DNA of 64,000 nucleotides from sequence record MN850645.1; one strand, given 5' to 3'. The number at the start of each line of letters is the position of its first letter. Position 1 is the stretch's first letter. The notes below the pieces were generated by a model. The model saw only the letters and a program-made list of their open reading frames with translations, had not been told where the DNA came from and did no database searches. Below, piece by piece: positions 20,142 to 31,424 of this stretch. The stretch comes from Escherichia phage outra. The position numbers and the translations under genes are program-made.

Positions 20142-20268
20142 TCATCTTGTCGAGGGGGGCGAGGCACAACGACAATAAACAAAAGGAGGGCGCAATGCAG
20201 GACGGGCAAAGGTGAGGATCTCCACAATCCACCGTCACAATAACATTACTTATAAAAGGTTGATAACG

Positions 20269-20364
20269 ATGATCAAGAAAGAAAACAGCTTGACGGTTGG
20301 AACGATTAACGCTATCATTCTAGCCGTTCCATTTTGGATTGTAGTAGCGGTTATTATCTTTTAA
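20269..20364 (+). CDS. hypothetical membrane peptide (31 aa)
   Basis: hand-translated; hydrophobic; weak SD. Confidence 0.25.
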   Translation: MIKKENSLTVGTINAIILAVPFWIVVAVIIF

Positions 20365-20372
20365 AAATATTC

Positions 20373-20428
20373 TTGACAACGTTTTTTAATCTGATAAGAT
20401 GTATCACATAGGGCGGCAATAGTGCCGC
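20373..20428 (+). promoter_or_regulatory. sigma70-like promoter plus type-B leader hairpin
   Basis: -35 TTGACA 20373-78, -10 TAAGAT 20395-400, hairpin GCGGCA-ATAG-TGCCGC 20413-28. Confidence 0.6.
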
Positions 20429-20452
20429 TCATAACAGAAGAGAGAAATAATC

Positions 20453-20725
20453 ATGGCATCATATAGCGCATCAATGATCGTAGCTGGCATCACTGGTAAA
20501 CCTATGCGCGGTGGCGGATCTTTCGCTAACATCAATATTGATGGGCGTTTATCCCTGGATGCAGCGATCACCGTGGCACGGGAAACATTTAAAAAAGAAT
20601 GTAATTTCAATAAACAAGATTATCTCGGCTTCGTTATTGAAAAAACCGCGCGCTTTGTGGATTATAAAAGCCCGAAAATGATCGACACTACACTAAAAGC
20701 GCAAGATGTAGCGTTTTTGCTTTAA
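20453..20725 (+). CDS. hypothetical protein (90 aa)
   Basis: ORF downstream of promoter/hairpin cassette; host-like codons. Confidence 0.55.
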   Translation: MASYSASMIVAGITGKPMRGGGSFANINIDGRLSLDAAITVARETFKKECNFNKQDYLGFVIEKTARFVDYKSPKMIDTTLKAQDVAFLL

Positions 20726-20728
20726 GGC

Positions 20729-20789
20729 TTGACACTTAAAAATAATTTTGTAATATATACCACATAAGGCGGGGAAATGGTTTCCCGCC
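20729..20789 (+). promoter_or_regulatory. sigma70-like promoter plus type-A leader hairpin
   Basis: -35 TTGACA 20729-34, -10 TAATAT 20751-56, hairpin GGCGGGGAAA-TGG-TTTCCCGCC 20768-89. Confidence 0.6.
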
Positions 20790-20811
20790 AAATCAAAGAA
20801 AGGGTAATGCA

Positions 20812-21174
20812 ATGAGCAAGCAAATCAATACTATCATGTTAAACCTGGTATCTTTCCGCGACGACGTGAAAAATCTTCCACGTGATGCAGTGGATGCACG
20901 GATCGAAAGCTATCGCTCACAGATCGCAACGCTACCGCTAAAACGTGATCAACATGCCGCTAATATGATGCTTAATGCTATGCTTAAAAAGATGATTCAA
21001 TGTGATCTTACCCTGGCTTATGAATATGCTGGCGATCTCTTTGTAACATATAGCAAGCCCGTACCAGGTATGAGCACAACCGAAGAATTGCATGCCTTAA
21101 ATCTGCGACAAGATGCATGGGATAACATGCGCCGTGTTATGGTATGGGTAGAAAGCGGTAAAATTTACGAATAA
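20812..21174 (+). CDS. hypothetical protein (120 aa)
   Basis: AAAGGG SD; downstream of cassette. Confidence 0.55.
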   Translation: MSKQINTIMLNLVSFRDDVKNLPRDAVDARIESYRSQIATLPLKRDQHAANMMLNAMLKKMIQCDLTLAYEYAGDLFVTYSKPVPGMSTTEELHALNLRQDAWDNMRRVMVWVESGKIYE

Positions 21175-21180
21175 AAACGG

Positions 21181-21234
21181 TTAACATTGCACTAAAACCT
21201 GATAAGCTATCTTAAAGCGGGAACTATTCCCGCT
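21181..21234 (+). promoter_or_regulatory. weak promoter-like sequence plus leader hairpin variant
   Basis: TTAACA-16-TAAGCT, hairpin AGCGGGAA-CTA-TTCCCGCT 21216-34. Confidence 0.35.
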
Positions 21235-21252
21235 TACATAGGATAAAACTTT

Positions 21253-21402
21253 ATGAAACAATATGTAATGAGTATTCACACCAAAAACGGCGCTACTGTT
21301 ACAACTCCGGCACGGTTTGCACTTGTAAACCGTTGCAAGAGACTAAAACGAGAGTTAAAAAATAACCGTGCAACGGGCTGCTTTAAACGCTGGGGAGGAT
21401 AA
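21253..21402 (+). CDS. hypothetical small protein (49 aa)
   Basis: hand-translated. Confidence 0.4.
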   Translation: MKQYVMSIHTKNGATVTTPARFALVNRCKRLKRELKNNRATGCFKRWGG

Positions 21403-21404
21403 TC

Positions 21405-21677
21405 TTGTTTTTTCTAAAAGTTTTTGATAATGTGATCGCTTTTGAACATGCTACAACGTTCAACCTGGCGAGATACGCTATCAGGTTTAAAGATAATGTT
21501 TATCCCCGTGCTGGTGGCGGTTACACTATCTTTAATCATCGTAACGCTCAATTAACAGATATAACGAATCCAGATCCTGGAGTGTATCGCATAGGCTGGC
21601 TACCGTCAAAAGACGCGGCAAGCATGTTTAAGGTGTGTAAACTACTAACAGAAGAGGCGAACGAACATGGGGCGTGA
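21405..21677 (+). CDS. hypothetical protein (90 aa), TTG start
   Basis: GGAGGA SD before TTG. Confidence 0.45.
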   Translation: MFFLKVFDNVIAFEHATTFNLARYAIRFKDNVYPRAGGGYTIFNHRNAQLTDITNPDPGVYRIGWLPSKDAASMFKVCKLLTEEANEHGA

Positions 21678-22221
21678 ATATGTGATCCAGTCATGGGTAA
21701 AGCATGACGCTAATGATCCGCGCATAATACCAGATGACATGATCGATCACATGGTAGGGTACAGCGGGGAGCAGATAGGGAATCGAGCGGCAAAGAGCAA
21801 CGGGCACACAAAGACGCGATCCGTTCGCCCTGGTTGGCTGGCAAATGGTAACGCTGACATTGCAAGCGCCGCAGATCCAAGCGATGACGCTAAAAATAAT
21901 CCCTTATATAGCATTGATCCGGCTTTTAAGGTGTTAGAAGAGTATCCCGCTAAATTAGCCGCACTAGATAAGGCATACGAAGAAAAGCGCATGGCATGGA
22001 CTGTATACAACACCGCTAAAATGGTGCTAGATGCAAAATTGATTAAAGCCCAGGAGAAGATCAATAAACTTGTTGCAGTAGCGCAAGAGGAAGACCAGGA
22101 CGACCAGGAGGAAGAGGAAGAAATCATGCCTACCCTGGAAGAGGAAGAGATCCAGCCATACATGCCGACGGAAGAGGAAAAAAGACAAGCCCTAAAAAAT
22201 TATGAAAATTGCATTGTGTAA
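21667..22221 (+). CDS. hypothetical protein with acidic C-terminal tail (184 aa)
   Basis: ORF; C-terminus QEEDQDDQEEEEE. Confidence 0.5.
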   Translation: MGREYVIQSWVKHDANDPRIIPDDMIDHMVGYSGEQIGNRAAKSNGHTKTRSVRPGWLANGNADIASAADPSDDAKNNPLYSIDPAFKVLEEYPAKLAALDKAYEEKRMAWTVYNTAKMVLDAKLIKAQEKINKLVAVAQEEDQDDQEEEEEIMPTLEEEEIQPYMPTEEEKRQALKNYENCIV

Positions 22222-22224
22222 GGC

Positions 22225-22280
22225 TTGACATATGCAAATAAGCCCCGTAATATGTACCACATAAAGCGGGGCAACGCCCC
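22225..22280 (+). promoter_or_regulatory. sigma70-like promoter plus short GC hairpin
   Basis: -35 TTGACA 22225-30, -10 TAATAT 22248-53, hairpin GGGGC-AAC-GCCCC 22268-80. Confidence 0.5.
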
Positions 22281-22302
22281 ATAAAGTGAAATAAAAAATC
22301 AC

Positions 22303-22330
22303 TTGACACCTGAAATCAGTAAGCTATAAT
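22303..22330 (+). promoter_or_regulatory. consensus sigma70 promoter
   Basis: -35 TTGACA 22303-08, 16-bp spacer, -10 TATAAT 22325-30. Confidence 0.65.
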
Positions 22331-22367
22331 GCTTATATAGATTGAAACATTACTAAGGAATAAAAGC

Positions 22368-22547
22368 ATGGCTATTATTGCAAAAACTGAGATCGTAGGT
22401 TTAGATTCTATCATCCTGGCATATGAGGAAGCTGTAGAAATGTATGTGGTTTCCTATGGTGATTATATCCGTGAATATAAATCTATTGATCTAGCTTTTG
22501 AATGCTATATTCGCCAGGTCAATAAAGCATATGATGATTATCGTTAA
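22368..22547 (+). CDS. hypothetical small protein (59 aa)
   Basis: hand-translated; AAGGA SD. Confidence 0.45.
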   Translation: MAIIAKTEIVGLDSIILAYEEAVEMYVVSYGDYIREYKSIDLAFECYIRQVNKAYDDYR

Positions 22548-22566
22548 AAGTTTTAGTCTTGTGCTA

Positions 22567-22595
22567 TTGACAACGAACGATAGTACAAGCATAAT
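22567..22595 (+). promoter_or_regulatory. sigma70-like promoter
   Basis: -35 TTGACA 22567-72, 17-bp spacer, -10 CATAAT 22590-95. Confidence 0.5.
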
Positions 22596-22642
22596 AACTT
22601 TTATCGGGAATACTCCTAACTAATCAAAAGAGATTAAAGACT

Positions 22643-23008
22643 ATGGCTAAAAATATCAATGTTTCTGCTTATGCTACCCTGGCTAACACTGCTAAAATTG
22701 AACTATCTAGCATTGAAGCGGTACATATTAGCGCCCGTCGCTGGTTTCAAAAGTCTTATGGTAACACTTATTTCTCTTTGATGGTTGACGTTGAGATCGG
22801 CGGTAAACTGATCGAAGTCGTTAACGTTCCGTTTCACTATGGCTACGGGGATCATTTTGATACCGTTGCCCTAGAAGAGTTTAGCAAGGTTATCAACCTG
22901 GAAGGTAAAGAGTTTTCAAATTATGCCTACCTTTCCCGTTTTTGCCGTGATAATGGGATCGCTGTATACAGTCATGCAAGCGATGTTAAACGTAAAAAAG
23001 ATTTATAA
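22643..23008 (+). CDS. hypothetical protein (121 aa)
   Basis: ORF downstream of promoter. Confidence 0.55.
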   Translation: MAKNINVSAYATLANTAKIELSSIEAVHISARRWFQKSYGNTYFSLMVDVEIGGKLIEVVNVPFHYGYGDHFDTVALEEFSKVINLEGKEFSNYAYLSRFCRDNGIAVYSHASDVKRKKDL

Positions 23009-23014
23009 AAAGCA

Positions 23015-23079
23015 TTGACAGCACGAATAAAAAGCGTAAAATGTTTCATATCAGGACGGGGAACGAAGTAACACCCCGT
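23015..23079 (+). promoter_or_regulatory. sigma70-like promoter plus hairpin (no ORF immediately downstream)
   Basis: -35 TTGACA 23015-20, -10 TAAAAT 23037-42, hairpin ACGGGG...CCCCGT 23056-79. Confidence 0.45.
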
Positions 23080-23128
23080 TAAGTAGCCCAGGAGTAAGGC
23101 ACACGAAAAACTCCCCTGATAAAATAGT

Positions 23129-23186
23129 TTGACAATGGTTTCTAATAACGTATAATACTTACATCGAGAGCGGGAACACTTCCCGC
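23129..23186 (+). promoter_or_regulatory. consensus sigma70 promoter plus leader hairpin
   Basis: -35 TTGACA 23129-34, -10 TATAAT 23151-56, hairpin GCGGGAA-CAC-TTCCCGC 23170-86. Confidence 0.65.
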
Positions 23187-23211
23187 CTCACTGAAAAAAG
23201 AGATTAACATC

Positions 23212-23451
23212 ATGGCTAAATCTAAAATGTTCTTAGGTCACAAAAACAAAACTCATTGGAATGTAAGCCTTTGGATCAACAACGATGAAGGTTTTTATAA
23301 TCTTGCGCGTGAATTTATCGCAGCTAACACCAATAAGAATGACGCAGCGCGTGATATGATGTTATTTCTTGAAAGTATGGATCAAGATAAAACGCCAGAC
23401 GGTTACAAGTTCAGTAAAACCGCGATCCGTGCCGCTATGGTTGGAATGTAA
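23212..23451 (+). CDS. hypothetical protein (79 aa)
   Basis: ORF downstream of cassette. Confidence 0.55.
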   Translation: MAKSKMFLGHKNKTHWNVSLWINNDEGFYNLAREFIAANTNKNDAARDMMLFLESMDQDKTPDGYKFSKTAIRAAMVGM

Positions 23452-23546
23452 AGGAGACATAAAAATGAAACATCGTTCGACCTATCTCACAAAACGTTTT
23501 AGCTTAGATCATAAATTGGGCTATTACGGAAGAAATAGAAAATAAT

Positions 23547-23606
23547 TTGACAACGTTTTAAATTAGTGTAAGATATATCACATAGGGCGGGAAATGGTTT
23601 CCCGCC
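23547..23606 (+). promoter_or_regulatory. sigma70-like promoter plus type-A leader hairpin
   Basis: -35 TTGACA 23547-52, -10 TAAGAT 23569-74, hairpin GGCGGGAAA-TGG-TTTCCCGCC 23586-606. Confidence 0.65.
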
Positions 23607-23628
23607 AAATCAAAGAAAGGTTATCATT

Positions 23629-23856
23629 ATGGCTATCATTATTGTTCGCGTATCCGGTACGGTTGGAAGCTCCCAGGTAGTAGCAGTTATCACCGAGAAG
23701 AAAGGGGATGATCTTCACTCTTCCTTGAATAGCTGGGCGGTAGCTAACTTCGGGCAATGGTCGAGCGTTGAGTACATCGAATCCTACCAGGTGCCAACGA
23801 TTAGCCTAACCGATCTAAATGTTGATCGCTTGTTGTGCCTGGATGGATTAAACTAA
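23629..23856 (+). CDS. hypothetical protein (75 aa)
   Basis: ORF downstream of cassette. Confidence 0.55.
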   Translation: MAIIIVRVSGTVGSSQVVAVITEKKGDDLHSSLNSWAVANFGQWSSVEYIESYQVPTISLTDLNVDRLLCLDGLN

Positions 23857-23864
23857 AAATAATC

Positions 23865-23920
23865 TTGACAAGATAACTAAAATCAGTAAAATGTAATGCA
23901 TAGGGCGGCAATAGTGCCGC
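23865..23920 (+). promoter_or_regulatory. sigma70-like promoter plus type-B leader hairpin
   Basis: -35 TTGACA 23865-70, -10 TAAAAT 23887-92, hairpin GCGGCA-ATAG-TGCCGC 23905-20. Confidence 0.6.
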
Positions 23921-23943
23921 TCCTAGTGAGAGAGATTATCAAA

Positions 23944-24156
23944 ATGGCTAATATCCGCACACTGTTAAAAAATGCAAAACAAGTTTTATTTTCTGATCAC
24001 GATCATTTTAATAAAGATATTACAGGCGTGAAGAATATCAAAGAGGTAAAAAGTGTTATGGGTATCTATTGCAATATGAAGCGAGTAGGCACATTTGGTG
24101 ATAAAGTATTATATCAGGCAGGTGACTACAATTTTACTTTGACAATTATCAACTAA
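23944..24156 (+). CDS. hypothetical protein (70 aa)
   Basis: start moved to ATG 23944 (track start 23896 lies inside promoter/hairpin). Confidence 0.5.
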   Translation: MANIRTLLKNAKQVLFSDHDHFNKDITGVKNIKEVKSVMGIYCNMKRVGTFGDKVLYQAGDYNFTLTIIN

Positions 24157-24167
24157 GGGATCACAAA

Positions 24168-24326
24168 ATGAAAACTTGCCAATGTGGTAAAAAGTCTATC
24201 TCTGGTTTAAAACGTGGCGTTGCTCTTTGTCAATATCACTATAACGCTCAAACGTGGGGTAAGCAGTGGGCGGATCAGGTGGAAGAGGCAAAGAAAGAAA
24301 ATATAAAAGTAGTTGCAAAGAAATAA
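24168..24326 (+). CDS. small Zn-ribbon-like protein (52 aa)
   Basis: hand-translated; CQCG...CQYH motif. Confidence 0.4.
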   Translation: MKTCQCGKKSISGLKRGVALCQYHYNAQTWGKQWADQVEEAKKENIKVVAKK

Positions 24327-24373
24327 AAATAGAGTAAACTGTATTCATCAAGGCGGTGGAATAGCTCACCGCC
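24313..24373 (+). promoter_or_regulatory. promoter-like sequence plus leader hairpin variant
   Basis: TTGCAA-16-TAAACT, hairpin GGCGGTG...CACCGCC 24352-73. Confidence 0.4.
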
Positions 24374-24397
24374 TAACAAAGAGAAGAGGAAAACATC

Positions 24398-24568
24398 ATG
24401 ATCACTTTCGCTACCCGTGAAGCCGCTCGCAACGTTGCACGTAAAGTTAATGCCGCCAACCTGGGCGCTACGCTTAAAGCCCCGGTAAAAGATGAATCAG
24501 GTAAATGGATCTTTCCTGGTCTGCGTCACGCTGATAAGCTGGGAACATTAACGTTAAAAAATAAATAA
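24398..24568 (+). CDS. hypothetical small protein (56 aa)
   Basis: hand-translated; GAGGA SD. Confidence 0.45.
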   Translation: MITFATREAARNVARKVNAANLGATLKAPVKDESGKWIFPGLRHADKLGTLTLKNK

Positions 24569-24575
24569 TATCCGC

Positions 24576-24634
24576 TTGACAGTAGCATGGTTTATAAGTA
24601 AAGTAACAACAACGGCGGGAAATGGTTTCCCGCC
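24576..24634 (+). promoter_or_regulatory. sigma70-like promoter plus type-A leader hairpin
   Basis: -35 TTGACA 24576-81, -10 TAAAGT 24599-604, hairpin GGCGGGAAA-TGG-TTTCCCGCC 24614-34. Confidence 0.55.
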
Positions 24635-24654
24635 ATCAATAAAGAGATAAGATT

Positions 24655-25014
24655 ATGAAATCAGTAAAAGCAATCAAAACTTACATTGTATCGGCTATTT
24701 CTTTTGAAGGTACTACAACCGAAAAAGAAAAAATCACCGAACTGATGCGCCGTTTTAATTCTGAATACTGGTATCCCGATAATCAAAAACGTTACAATTA
24801 TAACGTGATCAAGGCGATAGCCTCATGGTTACAAGGTTTACCGTCAGACATTAACATTGCCTTTGATTATAACGAGATTGATCATTTATTAATTGAATGG
24901 AAGTACATAAAAGAAACAAGCAAAGAAACAACCGTTACCCGTGAGCGGGAAAATTATTGGTTATATATTGCAAGCATGATCGTAATCCTGGCAAAACAGC
25001 ATAACGTGGCGTAA
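24655..25014 (+). CDS. hypothetical protein (119 aa)
   Basis: ORF downstream of cassette. Confidence 0.55.
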   Translation: MKSVKAIKTYIVSAISFEGTTTEKEKITELMRRFNSEYWYPDNQKRYNYNVIKAIASWLQGLPSDINIAFDYNEIDHLLIEWKYIKETSKETTVTRERENYWLYIASMIVILAKQHNVA

Positions 25015-25029
25015 TTAAGAGGAAGAAAC

Positions 25030-25167
25030 ATGAACGCATCACAGCAGATCGAAAAATTCAACCGCAGCAAGGCGCGTAAAGATTGGAACGAAGAGATCAC
25101 CAAAAAAGGCGACAAGCGGAACAAAACAAAAAGAGATCGCAGCACAAAAAGATACTGGAACGAATAA
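25030..25167 (+). CDS. hypothetical small basic protein (45 aa)
   Basis: hand-translated; GAGGA SD; Lys/Arg-rich. Confidence 0.4.
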   Translation: MNASQQIEKFNRSKARKDWNEEITKKGDKRNKTKRDRSTKRYWNE

Positions 25168-25174
25168 CAAAAAA

Positions 25175-25196
25175 GGGCGCAATAAGCGCCCTTTTA
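25175..25196 (+). terminator. rho-independent terminator
   Basis: GGGCGC-AATAA-GCGCCC stem-loop followed by TTTT. Confidence 0.65.
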
Positions 25197-25286
25197 GCTT
25201 ATATAGGGGCTTGTTACCCATAGGCAATGGTAACGCCAGGGCAAGCCTATAAATCAACGTTAGACGGCTTTACAGGAGCTTTAAAA

Positions 25287-25469
25287 ATGAGATTAGAAGA
25301 AATAAGCAAGGCACTAGACCAGGAGCAAAGGTTATGCGCCCGATATCGTGATCAATATGGCTTCATAACTAGCGGCGTGATCCTGGGGATGGAAGGCAAT
25401 AAGATTTTTATTGACACGTTGAAAAACGTTGTATATAGTGACAATATAATCTCAATAAAACATATATGA
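25287..25469 (+). CDS. hypothetical small protein (60 aa)
   Basis: start moved to ATG 25287 with AGGAG SD. Confidence 0.4.
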   Translation: MRLEEISKALDQEQRLCARYRDQYGFITSGVILGMEGNKIFIDTLKNVVYSDNIISIKHI

Positions 25470-25477
25470 GGCAAGAA

Positions 25478-25879
25478 ATGAAAAACTTATTGATCGCTGG
25501 TTTAATCTCTTTTGGCATGGTTGGAACATCTAGCGCGGCGATATCCTCCACAGTAGCAGAATTAAGCGCCGTTGATGCAATGGAAAACGTCATGCTTATT
25601 AATAATGCGATCCCCGATGAAATCATGGAGGATTCACACATGATCGCTTATGGTGCTGTTACACAACTAACGGCAAAAATAGATAAATCTATTGTTAATG
25701 GCTTAAATGAAGATGTACCATGTGAAATTATTACCAGTGTGCTGACTACTCAAAATTTTACGCCGTGGTTAAAAAGTATTCAAAAAGTACACAGTACAGC
25801 CGCAGATCGTAGCAATGAAAAACTAGTGTCAGCACTTGCAACGTATACCCTAGCAAAATGCACTGAGATAAAAGATTGA
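25478..25879 (+). CDS. putative secreted/periplasmic protein
   Basis: MKNLLIAGLISFGMVGTSSA signal-peptide-like N-terminus; GAGG SD. Confidence 0.5.
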   Translation: MKNLLIAGLISFGMVGTSSAAISSTVAELSAVDAMENVMLINNAIPDEIMEDSHMIAYGAVTQLTAKIDKSIVNGLNEDVPCEIITSVLTTQNFTPWLKSIQKVHSTAADRSNEKLVSALATYTLAKCTEIKD

Positions 25880-25904
25880 CAACATAGAAAGCACGTTATA
25901 AGAT
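25876..25904 (+). promoter_or_regulatory. sigma70-like promoter
   Basis: -35 TTGACA 25876-81, 17-bp spacer, -10 TAAGAT 25899-904. Confidence 0.5.
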
Positions 25905-25926
25905 ACACACAACAAAGGAGAACTAC

Positions 25927-26229
25927 ATGAACGGCATAGCTAAAACGTTTTTTCTTTTTTCTGGTGTAAATGATCCATCAATAAAAGTCGATAGTGTAAA
26001 AGAAAAAAATACTATCACCGCTAAATTGTTTCAAGATGAAACAAATAACGTGCTAATCATTAATCTTAAAGAAGTAACGAAAGGTTATTATACTATTGCT
26101 TACCATGCGATCTATCATGCTGGTACTGGTGAGGAAGTGCAAACAAGCAACAACGAAAGCGCGGCGCTACCTGGTGATCTGGTGCTGGGCGTTATCAGTT
26201 TAATTGTCAATGATTTTTTTAAGGAGTAA
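25927..26229 (+). CDS. hypothetical protein (100 aa)
   Basis: AAAGGAG SD. Confidence 0.55.
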   Translation: MNGIAKTFFLFSGVNDPSIKVDSVKEKNTITAKLFQDETNNVLIINLKEVTKGYYTIAYHAIYHAGTGEEVQTSNNESAALPGDLVLGVISLIVNDFFKE

Positions 26230-26233
26230 AACC

Positions 26234-26329
26234 ATGCCCTATTTACATTTATTTTTCGGTATCTTATTAACAGGATCTTTTTTCTTCTGTATGCTTGTTT
26301 CTATTGTAAACCACGTTTTAAGACATTAA
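26234..26329 (+). CDS. hypothetical membrane peptide (31 aa)
   Basis: hand-translated; AAGGAG SD; hydrophobic. Confidence 0.35.
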   Translation: MPYLHLFFGILLTGSFFFCMLVSIVNHVLRH

Positions 26330-26338
26330 GGAAACAGC

Positions 26339-26458
26339 ATGAAAATTATTCCCGTACAATATAGCGTAATAAATCCAGCATATGAGGAAGGAAGGAAAAC
26401 AAGCATGGCTTTATGTTGTATTGCTACTATAGCCATGTTGTTATACATTGTGTTTTAA
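26339..26458 (+). CDS. hypothetical membrane peptide (39 aa)
   Basis: hand-translated; AAGGAA SD; hydrophobic C-terminus. Confidence 0.35.
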   Translation: MKIIPVQYSVINPAYEEGRKTSMALCCIATIAMLLYIVF

Positions 26459-26487
26459 TAGGTTTTATAGTTGTACGCTTTAAAGGC

Positions 26488-26516
26488 TTGACAATTTTTT
26501 GTTATGCTTTAAACTA
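26488..26516 (+). promoter_or_regulatory. promoter-like sequence (good -35, weak -10)
   Basis: -35 TTGACA 26488-93; -10 candidate weak. Confidence 0.3.
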
Positions 26517-26558
26517 TATCTTGAAAACGGCAAAGGCCGCAAACAAAAGGGTAAAATT

Positions 26559-26882
26559 ATGAAATCTGTGATCGGTGTTTATTTGGATAACTCTGATTTT
26601 TTCTATCATCGCGCGCGTTTACTTGATGCTATTGAAATGATAGAATCAGGCTTTAAAGAGTATCGCCTTGCACATGATGACCTGGAAGCATTACAGGGCA
26701 ATAGTGTTTTTACATTGCAAGCGAAAGCACTATGCAAAAGCCGGATCGAGATTGCAAGTAAAAAGATAGAGCGCGGCATGTCCTGGTTGCGCACCGCAGA
26801 AATCAACATGGGGCAATGGTACGGCGAAAACTTAGAAAATAAACATGCTTTTGTCAATGTAGAAAATATTGAAGATTATTGA
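26559..26882 (+). CDS. hypothetical protein (107 aa)
   Basis: start moved to ATG 26559. Confidence 0.5.
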   Translation: MKSVIGVYLDNSDFFYHRARLLDAIEMIESGFKEYRLAHDDLEALQGNSVFTLQAKALCKSRIEIASKKIERGMSWLRTAEINMGQWYGENLENKHAFVNVENIEDY

Positions 26883-26944
26883 TTGACAGCACACCGAACG
26901 GGGAGTATATTGTATCTCATAGAGCGGGGAAATGGTTTCCCCGC
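26883..26944 (+). promoter_or_regulatory. sigma70-like promoter plus type-A leader hairpin
   Basis: -35 TTGACA 26883-88, -10 TATATT 26906-11, hairpin GCGGGGAAA-TGG-TTTCCCCGC 26924-44. Confidence 0.6.
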
Positions 26945-26964
26945 CTTAAAAGAAGAGATAAGCT

Positions 26965-27249
26965 ATGAAGATCACAAAAGCACTTTCCAACTATGCAGCA
27001 CGTCGCGGCTTATGTTTAACCGTTGAAAACCTGGGGAAAGAAGATTTTTTGTGCTTTTGGGAGCTTGAGAATGATAATGAGTGGATCTTCTCTTATTCTA
27101 TCTGCGAAGATCAAAACGGTTGTTTATTAGCCTGGCGCGGTAATATCTATCTACCGGAAGAAATCAAAGAAGAATTACCAGGCACGATCATGACTGAGAA
27201 ACAGCTTAAGGAAGTGATCAATTTTGTAGGGCAAAACATTAAAAAATAA
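26965..27249 (+). CDS. hypothetical protein (94 aa)
   Basis: ORF downstream of cassette. Confidence 0.55.
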   Translation: MKITKALSNYAARRGLCLTVENLGKEDFLCFWELENDNEWIFSYSICEDQNGCLLAWRGNIYLPEEIKEELPGTIMTEKQLKEVINFVGQNIKK

Positions 27250-27250
27250 T

Positions 27251-27307
27251 TTGACACTAGGCAAACAACGTAGTAAAGTTTATCACATAGGGCGGCAATA
27301 GTGCCGC
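27251..27307 (+). promoter_or_regulatory. sigma70-like promoter plus type-B leader hairpin
   Basis: -35 TTGACA 27251-56, -10 TAAAGT 27274-79, hairpin GCGGCA-ATAG-TGCCGC 27292-307; leader nearly identical to 20401-20452. Confidence 0.6.
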
Positions 27308-27330
27308 TCATAACAGAAGAGAAACAAATC

Positions 27331-27501
27331 ATGATCCCAACTATGTTTTATGTATCGCGCAAAGGTCACAATATTTTTTGGTCTGAAGATTTAAATGAAG
27401 CCATGACGTTTGCCCGTGATCGTGTCGCTATCGGTGGCGTTAACATTACCGTAACCGATGAAAATGGCATTGAATACTATAACGGCGACGATGAAGAGTA
27501 A
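27331..27501 (+). CDS. hypothetical small protein (56 aa)
   Basis: start moved to ATG 27331 (track start inside hairpin). Confidence 0.5.
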   Translation: MIPTMFYVSRKGHNIFWSEDLNEAMTFARDRVAIGGVNITVTDENGIEYYNGDDEE

Positions 27502-27508
27502 TTAATGA

Positions 27509-27529
27509 GGCGGGGGAATATTCCCCGCC
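27509..27529 (+). promoter_or_regulatory. intercistronic leader-type hairpin
   Basis: GGCGGGGGAA-TA-TTCCCCGCC between two ORFs without a recognisable promoter. Confidence 0.45.
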
Positions 27530-27548
27530 GTCAATAAAGAGGTAAATC

Positions 27549-27818
27549 ATGAAAATATCATTGGACGTTGCAATCAAGGCCATCGAATCCGGTTACACCC
27601 TGGTAAAAGATGATAAGGCTAAAATAGTGCATCATGTTAACAAGGAAACAGGCGAAAGCATGATCACATATAAAGCCGCCTACTTTCTCCAATCAGTAGC
27701 AGATCCGCGCGTACAACGCCAGGTTACGGCGGCTATTGCTAAAAAAGTATGTGCTTTACAGGGTACAAGTTTTAACGAGATCGCCCCGTGTTTTGACTGG
27801 TCGAGCTTGAAAAAATAG
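27549..27818 (+). CDS. hypothetical protein (89 aa)
   Basis: GAGG SD. Confidence 0.55.
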   Translation: MKISLDVAIKAIESGYTLVKDDKAKIVHHVNKETGESMITYKAAYFLQSVADPRVQRQVTAAIAKKVCALQGTSFNEIAPCFDWSSLKK

Positions 27819-27819
27819 T

Positions 27820-27847
27820 TTGACAATATGCGGTTATCTGGTAAAGT
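27820..27847 (+). promoter_or_regulatory. sigma70-like promoter (degenerate hairpin follows)
   Basis: -35 TTGACA 27820-25, -10 TAAAGT 27842-47. Confidence 0.5.
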
Positions 27848-27899
27848 GTACGACATAGGGCGGGGCAATAAGGCAACGCCCACTAATGAGGGTAAAATC

Positions 27900-28004
27900 A
27901 TGTTAGAGAAAATTTTCACGGTTGTAGTAGTGGGCCTGGCGTTATCGGTTGGAGTGATTGCAACTATGGCTAACATGATCCTATCTTCCCACGGTATTGG
28001 ATAA
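27900..28004 (+). CDS. hypothetical membrane peptide (34 aa)
   Basis: hand-translated; GAGGG SD; hydrophobic. Confidence 0.35.
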   Translation: MLEKIFTVVVVGLALSVGVIATMANMILSSHGIG

Positions 28005-28014
28005 GGTGAATCAA

Positions 28015-28230
28015 ATGATCACGAATAAGACAGGTAAAACAGAATTTTTACGCGGCTTGCAAATTGGTAAACCTGAAATATGGCATTGCACTAAATCCGC
28101 GCATAATGAGATGAAAGACTTTACCGCCACGTTACAACGTGTTAAAATATCTATTACGCAGAAAAAAGCCTTATTAGTAGTAGAAAACGAGATACCGCAA
28201 ACCATTATTATTGTCGAGCGTACAGCATGA
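28015..28230 (+). CDS. hypothetical protein (71 aa)
   Basis: start moved to ATG 28015 with AAGGTG SD. Confidence 0.45.
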   Translation: MITNKTGKTEFLRGLQIGKPEIWHCTKSAHNEMKDFTATLQRVKISITQKKALLVVENEIPQTIIIVERTA

Positions 28231-28613
28231 AAACTGAAATCATTATTGAAATCATCAACGGTTATAAAGAAGCCTTTATTTTTGCTGAATCAGCCAGGGA
28301 TCATGAAGGTAATTTTGTAAACGACATGACTGACTATGATTTTTCAGATCAAGCCCATCAGCGGATCATTCATGACGTAGCGGCTTATTGTGATGCCAAT
28401 GATGCTGCTATCTCTGAGGCAATGAGCGACGGCGCAACAGCAAACCAGATCGGGAATGACTTACATTTCACCCGTAACGGTCACGGCGTAGGCTTTTGGG
28501 ATCGCCCTGAAATATACACTACTAACACCGCCAACCGCCTAACAAATGCAGCTAAATTAATGCCATCGGTGCATGCTTACATTGGTGAAGATAATTTGAT
28601 TTATATTGAATAA
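28227..28613 (+). CDS. hypothetical protein (128 aa)
   Basis: 4-nt overlap with upstream gene. Confidence 0.55.
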   Translation: MKTEIIIEIINGYKEAFIFAESARDHEGNFVNDMTDYDFSDQAHQRIIHDVAAYCDANDAAISEAMSDGATANQIGNDLHFTRNGHGVGFWDRPEIYTTNTANRLTNAAKLMPSVHAYIGEDNLIYIE

Positions 28614-28619
28614 AAAGTA

Positions 28620-28678
28620 TTGACACCGATCCCCGATATGTTATTATTTACCACGTAGGCGGGAAATGGTTTCCCGCC
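28620..28678 (+). promoter_or_regulatory. sigma70-like promoter plus type-A leader hairpin
   Basis: -35 TTGACA 28620-25, -10 TATTAT 28642-47, hairpin GGCGGGAAA-TGG-TTTCCCGCC 28658-78. Confidence 0.65.
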
Positions 28679-28702
28679 AGGTAATCAAAAAAGGTAAATA
28701 CT

Positions 28703-29092
28703 ATGCGCAACCTGGTTTCTGTTTCTAACGTTGAAAAATTTCAATCCTTGCAGGGTATCGTTAACAACGTAGCGCCTTTTCTAGTCAATGGCTTGATTGC
28801 AAAGATGAAAAATAAACATCATGCAGCATGGTCTGCTTACTGCTTTGATAATGATGAAAAAGCGGCTGAAATGATGTTAAATATGCTGTTAGATAGTGTA
28901 GAATCATCTTTACCGGAAAACATCGCAGAAGAGATCACCTATCGTTATAATATGGCGATCACCTATCAGGAGGTTGCGCAATTCAATATGATGGACGATG
29001 ACGAACAACAGGATCAGGAAATGTTTTGGGAATATGCAGATCGTCAATCGGCTTTTGATGAAAAGTTAGCGATGTATTATAACGAATATTAA
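28703..29092 (+). CDS. hypothetical acidic protein (129 aa)
   Basis: AAAGG SD; downstream of cassette. Confidence 0.55.
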   Translation: MRNLVSVSNVEKFQSLQGIVNNVAPFLVNGLIAKMKNKHHAAWSAYCFDNDEKAAEMMLNMLLDSVESSLPENIAEEITYRYNMAITYQEVAQFNMMDDDEQQDQEMFWEYADRQSAFDEKLAMYYNEY

Positions 29093-29108
29093 TACACGGT
29101 AAAAGAAA

Positions 29109-29133
29109 GGGGCGCACTAAGCGCCCTTTTTTG
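29109..29133 (+). terminator. rho-independent terminator
   Basis: GGGGCGC-ACTA-AGCGCCC stem-loop followed by TTTTTTG. Confidence 0.7.
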
Positions 29134-29477
29134 TATTCTTTTTCACGATGGAAGTAACACGTAAAGAATAAACGTAAGAGGTGGCGTAAAACAGCCTAAA
29201 ACCGATTATAACCGCTTAAACAAGGTAGTAATGACTAATCACCTTGCCAGGATGAAAAAGCTGTTATAAAGCTATCTAGAGCGTTTAAAGCACATAGGAA
29301 ATAATTTGCTTTTTATCTTGCCTTTTATCCTGCTTTTGATTATTATTATGGAACGGGCGGCACCTGGGGACAGGGGAAGATAATCACCGGAAGATCCCGC
29401 TATATATTAATAGCTAATACCTATCAAACAACAAAACATCAAAGGAATAAACTATCAAATCTTTACAATCCTACCTA

Positions 29478-29537
29478 TTGACACAGGATCACCCTTATAC
29501 TAATATGTATCCCGTAGGGCGGGAAATGGTTTCCCGC
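29478..29537 (+). promoter_or_regulatory. sigma70-like promoter plus type-A leader hairpin
   Basis: -35 TTGACA 29478-83, 17-bp spacer, -10 TAATAT 29501-06, hairpin GCGGGAAA-TGG-TTTCCCGC 29519-37. Confidence 0.65.
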
Positions 29538-29556
29538 TTGATATAGGAATCATACC

Positions 29557-29790
29557 ATGATCGAACAAATTAAAAGCACTACACCAAATGTTAACGGCAA
29601 TGTTTCACACTTTATCGGTGATAATGAAAGGGGCACACCATACGCCGCCGTAACCGTGCAACCTAACGGGGATTATTGGTTTACCGTGTACGGATCATAC
29701 TCTTTCGGACGCCCGGCACATGATAAGATCTTGCAAGCGGTTAAACCTGCGGGGAAGAATATCACAGTAGAAAAATTCTATGAAAAATAA
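29557..29790 (+). CDS. hypothetical protein (77 aa)
   Basis: ORF downstream of cassette. Confidence 0.55.
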   Translation: MIEQIKSTTPNVNGNVSHFIGDNERGTPYAAVTVQPNGDYWFTVYGSYSFGRPAHDKILQAVKPAGKNITVEKFYEK

Positions 29791-29865
29791 CTTGCTTTAT
29801 AGCCTCTGTTAATTTATAGTTATCGTGTAGGGCAAACAATTTTAAACGGTAAACGAGGAATCACC

Positions 29866-30249
29866 ATGAGCAATATCATCAACCTGGCAGCGACTGTAAA
29901 CGGTAAAGATTTTAACGGCGCTGTAGATCATGATCCTATGTGGTGCTTATCAGTGTTTAAAGGTGACTTGGTTGAAGTTAGAACAACCGAAGGTTATAGC
30001 GACGATTATAAATGCGAGATTCATTTACACAACTGGTACACGGGTAAAACTTATGCGCTGAATCATGCGTTTATCGGCAAGGTTGAATATAGGGAAATGA
30101 TCGACGAAGAAACGGGGCAAGATTTTAGCGATTATGTTTATATTCGTTCCGAGACATTAGCCGAACGTTTGATCGAGAAAATGAAAGCAAAAAATAAAAT
30201 TAATTTAGCTCATTGGATTGATATAACAAACGATCCTGCTTATCAGTAA
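29866..30249 (+). CDS. hypothetical protein (127 aa)
   Basis: GAGGAA SD. Confidence 0.55.
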   Translation: MSNIINLAATVNGKDFNGAVDHDPMWCLSVFKGDLVEVRTTEGYSDDYKCEIHLHNWYTGKTYALNHAFIGKVEYREMIDEETGQDFSDYVYIRSETLAERLIEKMKAKNKINLAHWIDITNDPAYQ

Positions 30250-30263
30250 ATAACATTTCAAAC

Positions 30264-30292
30264 AAGGGCGCTTATTGCGCCCTTTCTTTTTA
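30264..30292 (+). terminator. rho-independent terminator (end of island)
   Basis: AGGGCGC-TTATT-GCGCCCT stem-loop followed by TTCTTTTT. Confidence 0.7.
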
Positions 30293-30496
30293 CCTAAATA
30301 AAGATGATAGCTTTTACCTATCAAAAACGTTCACCGAAAAAAGTGAATAGATCGCGGTATCGAGCTAATCAGGGAGCAGATGAACAACCATACCATGAAG
30401 ATCATAAGGCGCTTACAACGGCTTTTAGACCGCTTATTTTTAATTTCTTCATGCAACTATCTGGCAAAAACAGCCTTTTTCTTGTCTTTCCTCTTA

Positions 30497-30570
30497 AATG
30501 ATAATCATTCTTATTTATAGCTGATTATTTATGCAATAAACTGCATAATGCAATAATGATAATCATTCTT
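30497..30570. promoter_or_regulatory. two Fur-box-like sites (AAATGATAATCATTCTTA; AATAATGATAATCATTCTT)
   Basis: GATAATCATT core shared with Fur consensus. Confidence 0.45.
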
Positions 30571-31424
30571 AACTTATGACCATCTAACCTATAAAATAAT
30601 AAGCTATCTAACTAAATTAAAACTAATTATCTCACCTTTATTTATAACTTACTGTTACTATCTCATTGATAACCTTATATTAAACAACAATAACTAATAT
30701 AAATCATTACTAAGCTAAATATAATCTATCTAACCTTTAAAACTATAACTATAATCTATCGAATTGTTGCACAAAGTAACTATTAAATTGTTAGTAACAT
30801 TGCTAAATAATTAATATCCTATCTATTTATGATCTAATCTTTACCTTCCTATTTATTACCTAAATAACCATTTCATATAGTAATTATTTCATACAATAAC
30901 TATAACAAGAAACATAATTCGCAAGCGTATCATTAGCAGCCTATGCCGGACACATAGGCGGCTAATAATAACGCAACTACACACCCCACATAATAACCAT
31001 CACCGATAGTTATTATTTGTGCTTATGTAGCTTGCAACAATTGCAAGCGCAACAATATACTAAGGTATATTGTATCCCTTACATTGTTGCGGTGCGTTAT
31101 TATTAGCTAATGTTTAGAACATTGGCTATAATATAAGCTGCATATAATAAGCTATTCAATAATAAACATCGTGAATAATGACATTGATGATCATAATGCG
31201 CCACCCTCCAGGGGGCGCTATGTGAACACAAAGAAATCTTTCTTATCAAGAAAATATTATCACTATTGCGCAAAATTATTTACATCTGAATAGATGATTT
31301 TTCATACTATTATTGTTATTTGTTGAGCATAGTTATAGCCTATTTGTTGAGCCTACTTTCTTAAAAGCGCAATAAATCAGAATTATCTTGATTTTTAGTG
31401 CGTTTTATAGTATAGAAAATATGC

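Follow-up and report, generated by a model that had tools for sequence, protein, structure and literature searches.

The window analysed here is a stretch of 64,000 nucleotides from Escherichia phage outra (MN850645.1), and the early ORFan genes of this phi92/phAPEC8-like myovirus (Stephanstirmvirinae) are clustered at 20.3-29.6 kb. The cluster is built up from a single portable expression cassette that recurs about 20 times (Table 1), and about seventeen small early genes each stand behind a unit of promoter, hairpin and ribosome-binding site. The predicted order within a cassette would be a near-consensus host sigma70 promoter, the transcription start site, the hairpin, a spacer with the Shine-Dalgarno sequence, and the start codon. 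Seventeen related hairpins with G-rich and C-rich arms were found at 20.4-29.6 kb, all on the + strand, and none elsewhere in the 64 kb. The best promoter matches in 19.5-30.5 kb (at least 10 of 12 positions) were also mainly on the + strand (21 of 23).

Table 1. Coordinates of the cassettes, of the promoterless hairpin and of two terminators given for contrast.
Feature	Position	Strand	Promoter	Hairpin or stem	Start codon	Remark
Cassette 1	20373..20430	+	TTGACA-16-TAAGAT (20373-20400)	GGGCGGCAATAGTGCCGCTC (20411-20430)	20453	
Cassette 2	20729..20789	+	TTGACA-16-TAATAT	GGCGGGGAAATGGTTTCCCGCC (20768-20789)	20812	
Cassette 3	21181..21235	+	TTAACA-16-TAAGCT (weaker)	AAGCGGGAA-CTA-TTCCCGCTT (21215-21235)	21253	-35 TTAACA reads TTGACA in phi92 and Nernie
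Orphan cassette	22225..22280	+	TTGACA-17-TAATAT	GGGGC-AAC-GCCCC (22268-22280), weak, 5 bp		No ORF downstream; next promoter 22303
Orphan cassette	23015..23128	+	TTGACA-16-TAAAAT	ACGGGG(12)CCCCGT (23056-23079)		No ORF downstream; conserved non-coding tail; predicted product a closed two-hairpin RNA of about 72 nt
Cassette	23129..23189	+	TTGACA-16-TATAAT	GAGAGCGGGAACACTTCCCGCCTC (23166-23189)	23212	
Cassette	23547..23606	+	TTGACA-16-TAAGAT	Type 1 (23586-23606)	23629	
Cassette	23865..23922	+	TTGACA-16-TAAAAT	Type 2 (23903-23922)	23944	
Cassette	24313..24374	+	TTGCAA-16-TAAACT (weaker)	AGGCGGTGGAATAGCTCACCGCCT (24351-24374)	24398	
Cassette	24576..24634	+	TTGACA-17-TAAAGT	Type 1 (24614-24634)	24655	
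Cassette	26488..26539	+		CGGC-AAAG-GCCG (26528-26539), weak 4-bp hairpin alone	26559	
Cassette	26883..26944	+	TTGACA-17-TATATT	GCGGGGAAATGGTTTCCCCGC (26924-26944)	26965	
Cassette	27251..27309	+	TTGACA-17-TAAAGT	Type 2 (27290-27309)	27331	Hairpin interior differs at orthologous sites of other phages
Promoterless hairpin	27509..27529	+		GGCGGGGGAATATTCCCCGCC	27549 (next)	7 nt past the stop codon of the upstream gene; kept in Nernie, Paula and phAPEC8
Cassette	27820..27881	+	TTGACA-16-TAAAGT	GGGCGGGGCAATAAGGCAACGCCC (27858-27881)	27900	
Cassette	28620..28678	+	TTGACA-16-TATTAT	Type 1 (28658-28678)	28703	
Cassette	29478..29538	+	TTGACA-17-TAATAT	GGCGGGAAATGGTTTCCCGCT (29518-29538)	29557	
Canonical intrinsic terminator	25171..25195	+		A-run, G/C stem, T-run		Closes the first cassette block
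Canonical intrinsic terminator	29104..29132	+		T6 tract		Closes the second cassette block

The hairpin family reported in the preliminary description is real: a search with the type-1 sequence GGCGGGAAANNNTTTCCCGCC, allowing up to three mismatches, gave six matches, all on the + strand; whereas none was expected from 100 shuffles. Most of the six type-1 sites claimed there were recovered, including exact copies at 23586, 24614 and 28658 and near copies at 29518 (one mismatch) and 20769 (two mismatches); but 26924 proved to hold a shifted variant, GCGGGGAAATGGTTTCCCCGC, whose 9-bp stem is perfect. The sixth match is the hairpin at 27509, which had been listed as a variant. The other variants are present at 21215, 23056, 23170 and 24351, except that the one at 22268 has a stem of just 5 bp (GGGGC/GCCCC). 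Type 2 (GCGGCA-ATAG-TGCCGC) was found as exact copies at 20413, 23905 and 27292, as described, and its stem extends in RNA to 8 pairs, one of which is G·U. The census of about 15 copies had overlooked two members, 27858-27881 and the weak hairpin at 26528-26539.

The distance between the -10 hexamer and the stem is near-fixed. Behind near-consensus sigma70 promoters, fourteen hairpins start 9-14 nt past the -10 hexamer; weaker promoters precede two others, with gaps of 6 and 10 nt. The gap is mostly 9-12 nt (range 6-14) rather than the 10-15 nt first given. The placement between promoter and ribosome-binding site applies to most copies, but not to 27509, which has no promoter. Moreover, the role in mRNA leaders does not extend to the hairpins at 22268 and 23056, which precede another promoter and no gene and are therefore not leaders. 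Across the window and seven related loci, 153 strong promoters were counted, of which 102 have a hairpin of -8 kcal/mol or better behind them; the first paired base is 9-11 nt past the -10 hexamer in 80 of these 102. Four strong promoters of the region (22303, 22567, 25411 and 25876) are without such a hairpin, and so are all consensus-like promoters elsewhere in the window. The leaders have a purine content of 71%, and the hairpin-to-start-codon distance is 17-24 nt.

That the hairpins behave as selected RNA structures is supported by their covariation, by G·U pairs on the sense strand and by the constant spacing to the -10 hexamer. Covariation was analysed in an alignment of 17 sequences from three phage groups, with 500 shuffles and slid controls; 94% of the alignment cells were paired, and six of nine pairs changed on both sides. 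No shuffle (0 of 500) matched the percentage paired, the double-sided change cells or the covariation score; the covarying-pair count was reached in 14 shuffles and the extra-pair-type count in 8, and the slid-control alignments showed 41-66% pairing. At orthologous sites with flanks 96-98% identical, the interior was swapped (CAATAGTG, GAAATGGTTTC or CGGAATGGTCCAC) with self-complementarity kept, and the loops were variable (CTA/TTG/TAG and CAC/TAG/TAC). Among 43 unique hairpins, the sense RNA was more stable than the antisense in 28 and less stable in 6. The cassette hairpins have stabilities of -11 to -16 kcal/mol, and the predicted leaders fold into a tail of 2-5 nt, the hairpin and a fully open ribosome-binding site (Z-scores -1.9 to -4.8). 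These indicate that the sense-strand RNA structure, and not the sequence itself, is the target of selection.

The hairpins had been described as lacking a U-tract and not being terminators, and this agrees with the sense-strand composition: the 8 nt past the hairpin contain a mean of 1.1 T, with no more than one T in 45 of 56 cassettes. A terminator scan of the + strand flagged none of the hairpins; true T-tract terminators exist separately in the region, at 25171 and 29104. A sense-strand intrinsic terminator was ruled out by the missing U-tract and the negative + strand scan.

The preliminary description overlooked that these are recombining portable units comparable to the PeSL units of T4-like phages, that they occur in three phage groups, and that public annotations mislabel them. 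The same architecture is present in rV5-like phages (Vequintavirinae; rV5) and in jumbo Asteriusvirus phages (ph0011), and the orphan element and cassette-gene modules are common to the three unrelated groups. In ph0011 the cassettes have TTGCAA promoters and AGGGG...CCCCT stems, even before a gene that is also found in the window. The stems of the rV5, jumbo-phage and phi92 types have no common sequence beyond G-run/C-run complementarity. Insertions, deletions and gene swaps among relatives have their junctions within the cassettes: Paula carries an additional gene between duplicated cassettes, SD2 has a deletion junction within the G-rich arm, and the loss of one gene and its promoter in phAPEC8 left two hairpins in tandem. 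The gene driven by one and the same cassette differs between phi92 and the window, and the gene order is altered in tuntematon. The cassettes show no more of a breakpoint excess than intergenic DNA in general would be expected to have. Public records label the hairpins inconsistently or wrongly; GTAGGGCGGCAATGGTGCCG is annotated in the phAPEC8 RefSeq record as "putative promoter determined with PHIRE", whereas the Paula record has eight hairpins as "terminator" features, on the opposite strand from the genes.

Among the candidate roles proposed earlier, that of a 5'-terminal stabiliser fits best. Transcription is expected to start at a conserved pyrimidine-purine step (CA or CG) 7-8 nt past the -10 hexamer. 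The hairpin would then begin 2-5 nt past the start, with a stem of 6-10 bp whose 5' arm is G-rich and whose 3' arm is C-rich; this would place the stem-loop at about +3 to +25 of the transcript, and an unstructured purine-rich spacer with the Shine-Dalgarno sequence would lead to the start codon. The single-stranded 5' tail may be too short for RppH to remove pyrophosphate efficiently and for RNase E to attack in its 5'-end-dependent mode. Early messages might be longer-lived because a ribosome just downstream of the hairpin would cover the rest of the short leader. A start 6 instead of 8 nt past the -10 hexamer would give a tail of 4-6 nt, at or beyond the reported protection limit. According to work cited in PMC3997798, the ompA and papA mRNAs are stabilised by 5'-terminal stem-loops (Emory 1992; Bouvet and Belasco 1992; Arnold 1998; Bricker 1999), and the T4 gene 32 leader is described in PMC8948821 as stabilising likewise. 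As a second effect, the repeated cassettes may provide recombination homology, by which small genes could be inserted, deleted, swapped and reordered, as for PeSL.

This explanation as a whole, PeSL-like mobile early-expression units with the hairpin as a 5'-terminal stabiliser, seems as apt to be right as wrong; that mRNA stabilisation is the main function of the hairpin is inferred tentatively, as a reading just short of probable. The gene at 22368 is without a hairpin, whereas its rV5 and tuntematon orthologues have one; because this gene and the four strong cluster promoters lack it, the hairpin is dispensable for at least some genes. The promoterless hairpin at 27509 is conserved across genera and cannot serve as a primary 5'-end cap, and ordinary internal stem-loops can be scanned past by RNase E (PMC9943677). 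Moreover, the kept G-to-C arm polarity and the likeness of cassettes within a genome are not required by pure stabilisation.

These features could also be read as the RNA site of a trans-acting protein that governs all early genes at once, which is possible though unlikely; the candidate binders would include a phage antiterminator, a stabiliser, a translational regulator, or a shut-off nuclease like T4 RegB. About 17 transcripts of a single temporal class have one element in a constant place, which is the layout expected of a regulon-wide handle, and both the outer stem GGCGG/CCGCC and the arm polarity are kept within Stephanstirmvirinae. The cassettes are more alike within than across genomes (for example, in ph0011), which could represent co-evolution with a genome-specific factor, and the promoterless copy could still be bound. 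However, the loops and upper stems vary at orthologous sites and the stem length ranges from 6 to 10 bp, unlike the boxB, MS2-type and RegA-type operators; a boxA-like motif is absent, and the three stem types share only the G-run/C-run complementarity. A Pfam check of the ten largest ORFs of the cluster gave no family above the cut-off, and neither a candidate RNA-binding protein nor a recombinase was identified among them. A PeSL-type attenuator, a role that was proposed for RB49/phi1 and in part tested there, would cut read-through from upstream promoters and insulate each cassette; the hairpin is quite unlikely to be one. In RB49, a PeSL stem-loop of the G-run/C-run type that was placed after a promoter reduced lacZ expression to about the same extent as rrnB T1 (PMC2839356), the cluster has about 20 tandem promoters with only two canonical terminators, and the copy at 27509 is intercistronic; but an efficient terminator would stop its own transcript, since the hairpin is downstream of its own predicted start site. 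The T-poor tails, the negative + strand scan and the use of textbook terminators at the ends of gene blocks also disagree with attenuation, for which the fixed distance from the -10 hexamer would be unneeded.

An action of the palindrome as DNA, whether as the operator of a dimeric repressor, a cruciform or an integron-like single-stranded recombination hairpin, appears very unlikely. The position at about +3 to +25 of every promoter is that of a classical operator, some rearrangement junctions lie within the hairpin arms, interiors are exchanged among copies, and the modules are common to three unrelated groups; nevertheless, the arms differ in length, spacing and sequence and remain complementary, a freedom that would not be tolerated by a protein that reads double-stranded DNA. 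The G·U pairs make many of the hairpins imperfect DNA palindromes, the sense RNA is favoured 28 to 6, and neither the breakpoint frequency nor the Pfam check points to a recombination element. The database labels, a phage-specific promoter in phAPEC8 (GTAGGGCGGCAATGGTGCCG) or an opposite-strand intrinsic terminator in Paula (eight copies), are extremely unlikely to be correct, although a loose - strand terminator scan passes two copies. PHIRE merely detects repeated 20-mers, its labels lie about 20 nt 5' of a start codon, directly behind a full sigma70 consensus, and the element varies by compensatory change. The - strand tail has a mean of 3.3 T in 8 nt with a stem weaker than that of the sense RNA, and there are no - strand genes or strong promoters that need termination. 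Two further roles suggested earlier are also unlikely: RNase III sites, because the stems have only 6-10 bp, and the real recognition element of the promoter, as there is a full -35/-10 consensus 5' of the hairpin, whose sequence varies yet stays self-complementary.

The proposed stabiliser resembles the ompA, papA and T4 gene 32 leaders in having a hairpin without sequence requirement a few nucleotides from the 5' end, an efficient ribosome-binding site behind it, and an expected protection against RppH/RNase E 5'-end-dependent decay. Those are single cases, characterised by experiment, whose 5' ends were mapped and half-lives measured; whereas the window has about 17 sequence-inferred copies per genome, with leaders of about 45 nt compared with 133 nt in ompA. 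Intrinsic terminators share the intergenic G/C-rich hairpin of 6-10 bp; however, the leader hairpins have no sense U-tract and follow a promoter instead of a gene end, and the canonical terminators of the same region, with A-run and T-run flanks, lie apart from them. The lambda-type nut (boxA/boxB) and HK022 put sites are also small RNA hairpins early in the transcripts of early promoters. In contrast to nut, the window lacks both a boxA and a conserved GNRA-like pentaloop on a 5-bp stem, the hairpin loops vary, and there are about 17 copies rather than two; the put elements are two larger stem-loops. The hairpin promoters of the N4 virion RNA polymerase are similar in the short DNA hairpin, the 3-nt loop and the early transcription, but here each hairpin comes after a complete sigma70 -35/-10 and is not conserved in sequence, and the sense-strand G·U pairs indicate RNA over DNA. 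The PeSL units of RB49/phi1, PST/T4 and nt-1/KVP40 (Arbiol et al. 2010, PMC2839356; Comeau et al. 2014, PMC4122927) also consist of a repeated intergenic near-consensus sigma70 early promoter, a G-run/C-run stem-loop, a Shine-Dalgarno sequence and a start codon. They precede small ORFan genes in a hypervariable early region, and they bound insertions, deletions and replacements among close relatives. The PeSL stem-loop was read as a terminator of upstream transcription; whereas the hairpin of the window has a fixed site 3' of the predicted start, within its own transcript, and is without terminator features. The hosts of the units also differ, being T4-like phages for PeSL and Stephanstirmvirinae, Vequintavirinae and Asteriusvirus here. 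The unit in the window can be classed with the PeSL cassettes known from T4-like phages, as a variant of them.

The hairpin family of the early cluster is real, non-random and under selection. A search of the window for GGCGGGAAANNNTTTCCCGCC with up to 3 mismatches gave six matches, all on the + strand; whereas shuffled sequences gave an expectation of zero. When all 64 kb were searched exhaustively for perfect stems rich in G/C, the GCGG...CCGC stem type was confined to 19.8-29.5 kb, and the remaining G/C-rich hairpins were mostly terminators of the A-run/stem/T-run form. Covariance model R1, which was built from the hairpin family, matched within the window at 20.4-29.5 kb only. It recovered the type-1-like copies (9-bp stem, 3-nt loop), and type 2 only at E ~1; it also matched the reverse strand because the hairpin is palindromic. 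The covariance models of Rfam 15, run against 19-31 kb with E up to 1, showed no relevant family, and the sole match was a sub-threshold sRNA model at the 25.17 kb terminator. All hairpin sites named in the preliminary description are present in the sequence, but some of their properties had to be revised. The hairpin at 26924 is a shifted variant and not an unchanged copy, the one at 22268 has a stem of merely 5 bp, and the one at 27509 lacks the promoter assumed for it. Moreover, what comes after the hairpins at 22268 and 23056 is another promoter and not a gene. Two family members were added to the list (Table).

The cassette region shares 97% identity with Nernie, ESCO8 and Paula, three Escherichia phages, and shows a mosaic pattern of matches to 286 phage records. 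These records include phi92 (Justusliebigvirus), phAPEC8 and tuntematon (Phapecoctavirus), all of the subfamily Stephanstirmvirinae. Nineteen "Campylobacter phage" records (MG065639, MG065656 and others, with C. jejuni given as the host) are also ~95% identical to the cassette region; these deposits look like contamination or mislabelling. The cluster genes are small and all on the + strand. A Pfam scan of the ten largest cluster ORFs revealed no family above the cut-off and no hint of a binding protein. In phi92, the early cluster adjoins the right terminal repeat. The stretch 29130-31900 is mainly non-coding and of low GC (32% in 30-32 kb), with repeated TTATTTGTTGAGC-like motifs. Since this stretch corresponds to the neighbourhood of the phi92 right end and terminal repeat, the window probably spans joined genome ends.

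Among the best sigma70-like matches (at least 10 of 12 positions) in 19.5-30.5 kb, 21 of 23 are on the + strand. Of the 17 hairpins, 14 lie behind the sequence TTGACA-N16/17-TAnnnT with its perfect -35 hexamer, and two more behind weaker promoters (TTAACA-16-TAAGCT and TTGCAA-16-TAAACT). The stem is composed of a G-rich 5' arm and a C-rich 3' arm (-11 to -16 kcal/mol), and starts mostly 9-12 nt past the -10 hexamer in the window copies (range 6-14). Of 153 strong promoters counted in seven related loci and the window, 102 are followed by a hairpin with a folding energy of -8 kcal/mol or lower; the first paired base is 9-11 nt past the -10 hexamer in 80 of these 102, and the stem therefore lies downstream of the expected transcription start. 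At sigma70 promoters, E. coli RNA polymerase normally initiates 7-8 nt after the -10 hexamer. A CACATAG or CACGTAG motif is conserved in the gap between the -10 hexamer and the stem, and its CA/CG step is 7-8 nt past the hexamer. If transcription begins at this step, the unpaired 5' tail would be 2-5 nt; in stabilising stem-loops of the ompA/papA type, about 0-4 unpaired nt separate the hairpin from the mRNA 5' end. RNA folding of transcripts from this predicted start gave a short tail, the hairpin (here -14 to -16 kcal/mol, with z-scores of -1.9 to -4.8) and then a fully open leader. The leader after the hairpin is 71% purine and carries the Shine-Dalgarno sequence, and the distance from hairpin to start codon is 17-24 nt. 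The literature search found no transcriptome or start-site data for the Stephanstirmvirinae, Vequintavirinae or Asteriusvirus.

Another promoter-hairpin arrangement was observed at two places on the - strand (Table), for example TTGACA-18-TATAAT ... AAAGCCCC-AATCA-GGGGCTTT ... GGAGG ATG. This arrangement differs from the early-cassette family.

Table. Coordinates of hairpins, cassettes and associated features (window positions unless a locus of another phage, L006 to L015, is named).
Position	Strand	Feature	Observation
20160-20411		Deletion in SD2	Junction inside the G-rich arm
20413, 23905, 27292	+	Type 2 hairpins	GCGGCA-ATAG-TGCCGC
21215	+	Hairpin, loop drift	CTA/TTG/TAG
22225-22302		Second orphan cassette	Weak 5-bp hairpin only
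23015-23128		Orphan element	Consensus promoter, ~75 nt without ORF, next promoter; also L011:3721-3838, L013:2988-3097, L014:1494-1595, L015:1466-1590
23052-23151		Additional orphan cassette	Present in the window relative to relatives
23170	+	Hairpin, loop drift	CAC/TAG/TAC
23212-23451	+	79-aa early gene	Common to jumbo Asteriusvirus phages (L011:2558-2797)
25171, 29104		Canonical terminators with T-tracts	Split the cluster into blocks
26528	+	Weak family member	Beyond the preliminary list
27251		Cassette	Before gene 27331 in the window, before gp243 in phi92
27509-27529	+	Hairpin without promoter	Starts 7 nt past a stop codon; kept in Nernie, Paula and phAPEC8
27810-27826		Additional gene in Paula	Between two cassette copies
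27858	+	Family member	Beyond the preliminary list
L006:2373-2430		phAPEC8 locus	Without gene 27549 and the next promoter, leaving two tandem hairpins before the gene 27900 homologue
46030-46095, 53937-54009	-	Two consensus promoters	Then terminator-type A-run/stem/T-run hairpins ahead of the RBS

Selection on the RNA structure was analyzed with a gapless alignment (A2) of 17 copies from the window, phi92, phAPEC8, tuntematon, rV5 and the jumbo phage ph0011. In this alignment 94% of the cells are paired, a value to be read with the caution that the copies were hand-picked by eye and are therefore biased towards already recognised hairpins. Two-sided changes occur in six of the nine pairs (23 cells). 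None of 500 column shuffles attained the observed percentage of pairing, the number of cells with double-sided change or the covariation score, and merely 41-66% of the cells pair when the structure is slid by 1-3 columns. A first MAFFT alignment of the cassettes (A1) was dropped with both arms out of register, and the alignment derived from R1 (A3) was left out of the pair counts.

Independent support for a selected structure, beyond A2, is provided by sequence comparison at orthologous sites. Here the gene is the same and the flanks are 96-98% identical; the hairpin interior differs among the phages and is always self-complementary. For example, the hairpin of gene 27331 has a constant frame (GGGCGG...CCGCTC) around CAATAGTG, GAAATGGTTTC or CGGAATGGTCCAC, and comparable interior swaps are found at genes 20453 and 26965. 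The loops also drift (Table), and G·U pairs are present in many hairpin copies. Among 43 unique hairpins, the sense RNA is the stabler version in 28 and the antisense RNA in 6, a preference which is indicative only and has no formal probability because the hairpin sequences are related. Compensatory changes, swapped interiors and variable loops show a structure that is kept while the sequence is free, as in stabilising stem-loops of the ompA/papA type. These comparisons indicate that the hairpin structure is selected, and on the sense strand.

The family is widespread in the databases. The 57-mer of hairpin plus leader occurs in 128 phage records, with no more than four copies per genome, and some of the phages are from Enterobacter, Pantoea and Pectobacterium. 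The exact 21-mer was found in two IMG/VR contigs only, although exact matching is too strict to gauge the spread. The cassette layout with another stem is seen in rV5 of the Vequintavirinae (for example TTGACA-16-TATACT, 10 nt, GGCGGGAA-AAC-TTCCCGCC). The 348-kb Asteriusvirus phage ph0011 has TTGCAA-16-TATAAT promoters followed by AGGGGAAA-CGG-TTTCCCCT or GGGGAGAA...TTCTCCCT. For rV5-like and phi92-like phages, the literature search gave no account of cassettes of this kind; the rV5 genome paper gives promoters and terminators, but not these hairpins. In the phAPEC8 record, GTAGGGCGGCAATGGTGCCG is annotated as "putative promoter determined with PHIRE", right behind a sigma70 promoter found by MEME. 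The PHIRE-labelled 20-mers of this phage are the hairpins themselves; they lie directly 3' of the sigma70 consensus and vary by compensatory change. A phage-specific promoter, as the label implies, would be a conserved sequence 5' of the start sites that a polymerase or sigma factor encoded by the phage recognises. In the Paula record, eight copies are labelled "terminator" on the strand opposite the genes. The label of the hairpin thus differs between reference genomes (promoter in one, opposite-strand terminator in the other), and at least 128 deposited phage genomes carry the feature.

Alignments with the relatives break within or beside the cassettes (Table), and the gene order is permuted in tuntematon. 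The cassettes cover 18% of the region and contain 23 of the 45 breakpoint clusters, which is significant against the whole region. When only intergenic breakpoints are considered, 19 of 27 are in cassettes, close to the cassettes' 59% share of the intergenic DNA; the enrichment is lost, so that the breakpoints do not demonstrate a targeting of recombination to the cassette as such. The 79-aa early gene lies in Asteriusvirus behind a cassette of that lineage's own type, with a TTGCAT -35 hexamer and the stem GGTGGGGAA/TTCCCCACT. This pattern suggests either interfamily gene exchange or homogenisation of cassettes within a genome.

Two cassettes are orphans, with no gene downstream. The predicted transcript of the 23015-23128 element has a closed two-hairpin fold (-21.3 kcal/mol, z -3.2). 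In this element the promoter spacer is variable, whereas the transcribed part hardly changes. At ~91% identity, it recurs in roughly 40 jumbo Asteriusvirus phages (2-4 copies each) as well as in A73 (Vequintavirinae), muut and EmilieFrey. It is missing at the corresponding place in Paula, Nernie and phi92. The element has no Rfam match and is unannotated in most records carrying it, and is a candidate for a conserved phage small RNA. In read-through RNA of the 22225-22302 cassette, GCCCCG (22242) and CGGGGC (22267-22272) would pair into an alternative stem around the -10 box (-18.3 kcal/mol), which is the arrangement described for the classical promoter-early stem-loop cassettes (PeSLs) of T4-like phages.

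Several known element types were rejected. An intrinsic terminator on the sense strand was ruled out, since a U-rich tract is absent: the 8 nt 3' of the hairpin contain 1.1 T on average, with 45 of 56 cassettes having at most one T, and a terminator scan made no + strand call at any hairpin. The preliminary view that the hairpins are not terminators was thus borne out. The antisense strand has a mean of 3.3 T in 8 nt, and the scan flagged just 2 copies there. In an RNase III site of the T7 R-site type, the RNA is mostly double-stranded over about two helical turns (roughly 20 bp); the stems of 6-10 bp are too short, and this role, previously proposed as a candidate, was rejected as unlikely. 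A nut/boxB antitermination site consists of boxA and a 5-bp stem with a conserved purine-rich pentaloop. It was also rejected, as the intergenic DNA contains no boxA-like motif and the loops are variable (3-12 nt). The put sites and N4-type hairpin promoters were rejected on anatomy.

Concerning the function, the favoured reading of the hairpin is a 5'-terminal stabilising stem-loop of the early messages. A stem-loop of this type lengthens the mRNA half-life in dependence on the 5' end, RppH and RNase E. That mRNA stabilisation is its main function here is proposed tentatively, with slightly less than even confidence, because the hairpin keeps a fixed distance from the promoter, its predicted 5' tail is very short, and the sequence is unconstrained with sense-strand polarity. 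In such a compact leader, the hairpin and a bound ribosome would leave nearly no naked RNA. The weak points are that the transcription start is a predicted one, that some genes and promoters have no hairpin, and that the 27509 copy lies behind no promoter. RNase E scanning should not be blocked by a stem-loop at an internal position (PMC9943677). The arms keep their G-to-C polarity and the cassettes of one genome resemble each other; both features would fit a site for a trans-acting factor better than stabilisation, although such a site is unlikely on the whole.

It is quite unlikely that three unrelated large-coliphage groups have in common a dedicated trans-acting system with the hairpin as its handle, either an RNA-binding factor or hairpin-targeted recombination machinery. 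The former would govern all early ORFan messages jointly; the latter would make the promoter-hairpin-gene units an integron-like mobile pool, traded between phage families. The same likeness and polarity, as well as some junctions and swaps inside hairpins, are compatible with such a system. An attenuator is improbable, since the sequence, with no U-tract after the hairpin, speaks against termination. A double-stranded-DNA operator is unlikely in view of the variation in arm length, spacing and sequence, and the probability of a DNA-level element is considered very low. It is hardly credible that the database labels (PHIRE promoter or opposite-strand terminator) are correct, as the labelled 20-mers come right after sigma70 promoters and vary in a compensatory manner.

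The stabiliser hypothesis is directly testable by start-site mapping and half-lives. If it holds, many large virulent coliphages would equip their first-expressed, mostly uncharacterised genes with one standard unit, in which a very strong host promoter is joined to a protective 5' hairpin and an open RBS. This would explain how tiny early genes, which number in the dozens and often have anti-host or anti-defence functions, are strongly expressed, and how they are gained, lost and exchanged between families with their neighbours undisturbed. The compact natural cassette design might be reused by phage engineers and synthetic biologists.

Among the described systems, the PeSLs come closest. Before ORFans they unite a consensus early promoter, a stem-loop with G-run and C-run, and an RBS, and they mediate modular shuffling; their stem-loop precedes the transcription start and is considered a terminator (PMC2839356, PMC4122927). 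Excision as mini-circles also belongs to the PeSL definition. The cassettes of the window similarly have a near-consensus sigma70-type early promoter inside a repeated intergenic motif, with an adjoining stable stem-loop of G-rich and C-rich arms. They also serve small ORFans in a hypervariable region, with junctions in the cassettes, though enriched no more than in intergenic DNA generally. However, the PeSL stem-loop is upstream of, within or overlapping the promoter; whereas the stem-loop here lies past the expected start. The protection proposed for the compact leader resembles the T4 gene 32 leader and the ompA leader, which has two protective elements, a hairpin and a bound ribosome, according to references listed in PMC3997798. 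The family is a variant of PeSL-like cassettes in which the stem-loop is placed elsewhere and its role is probably different, combined with the known principle of stabilisation by a 5' hairpin.
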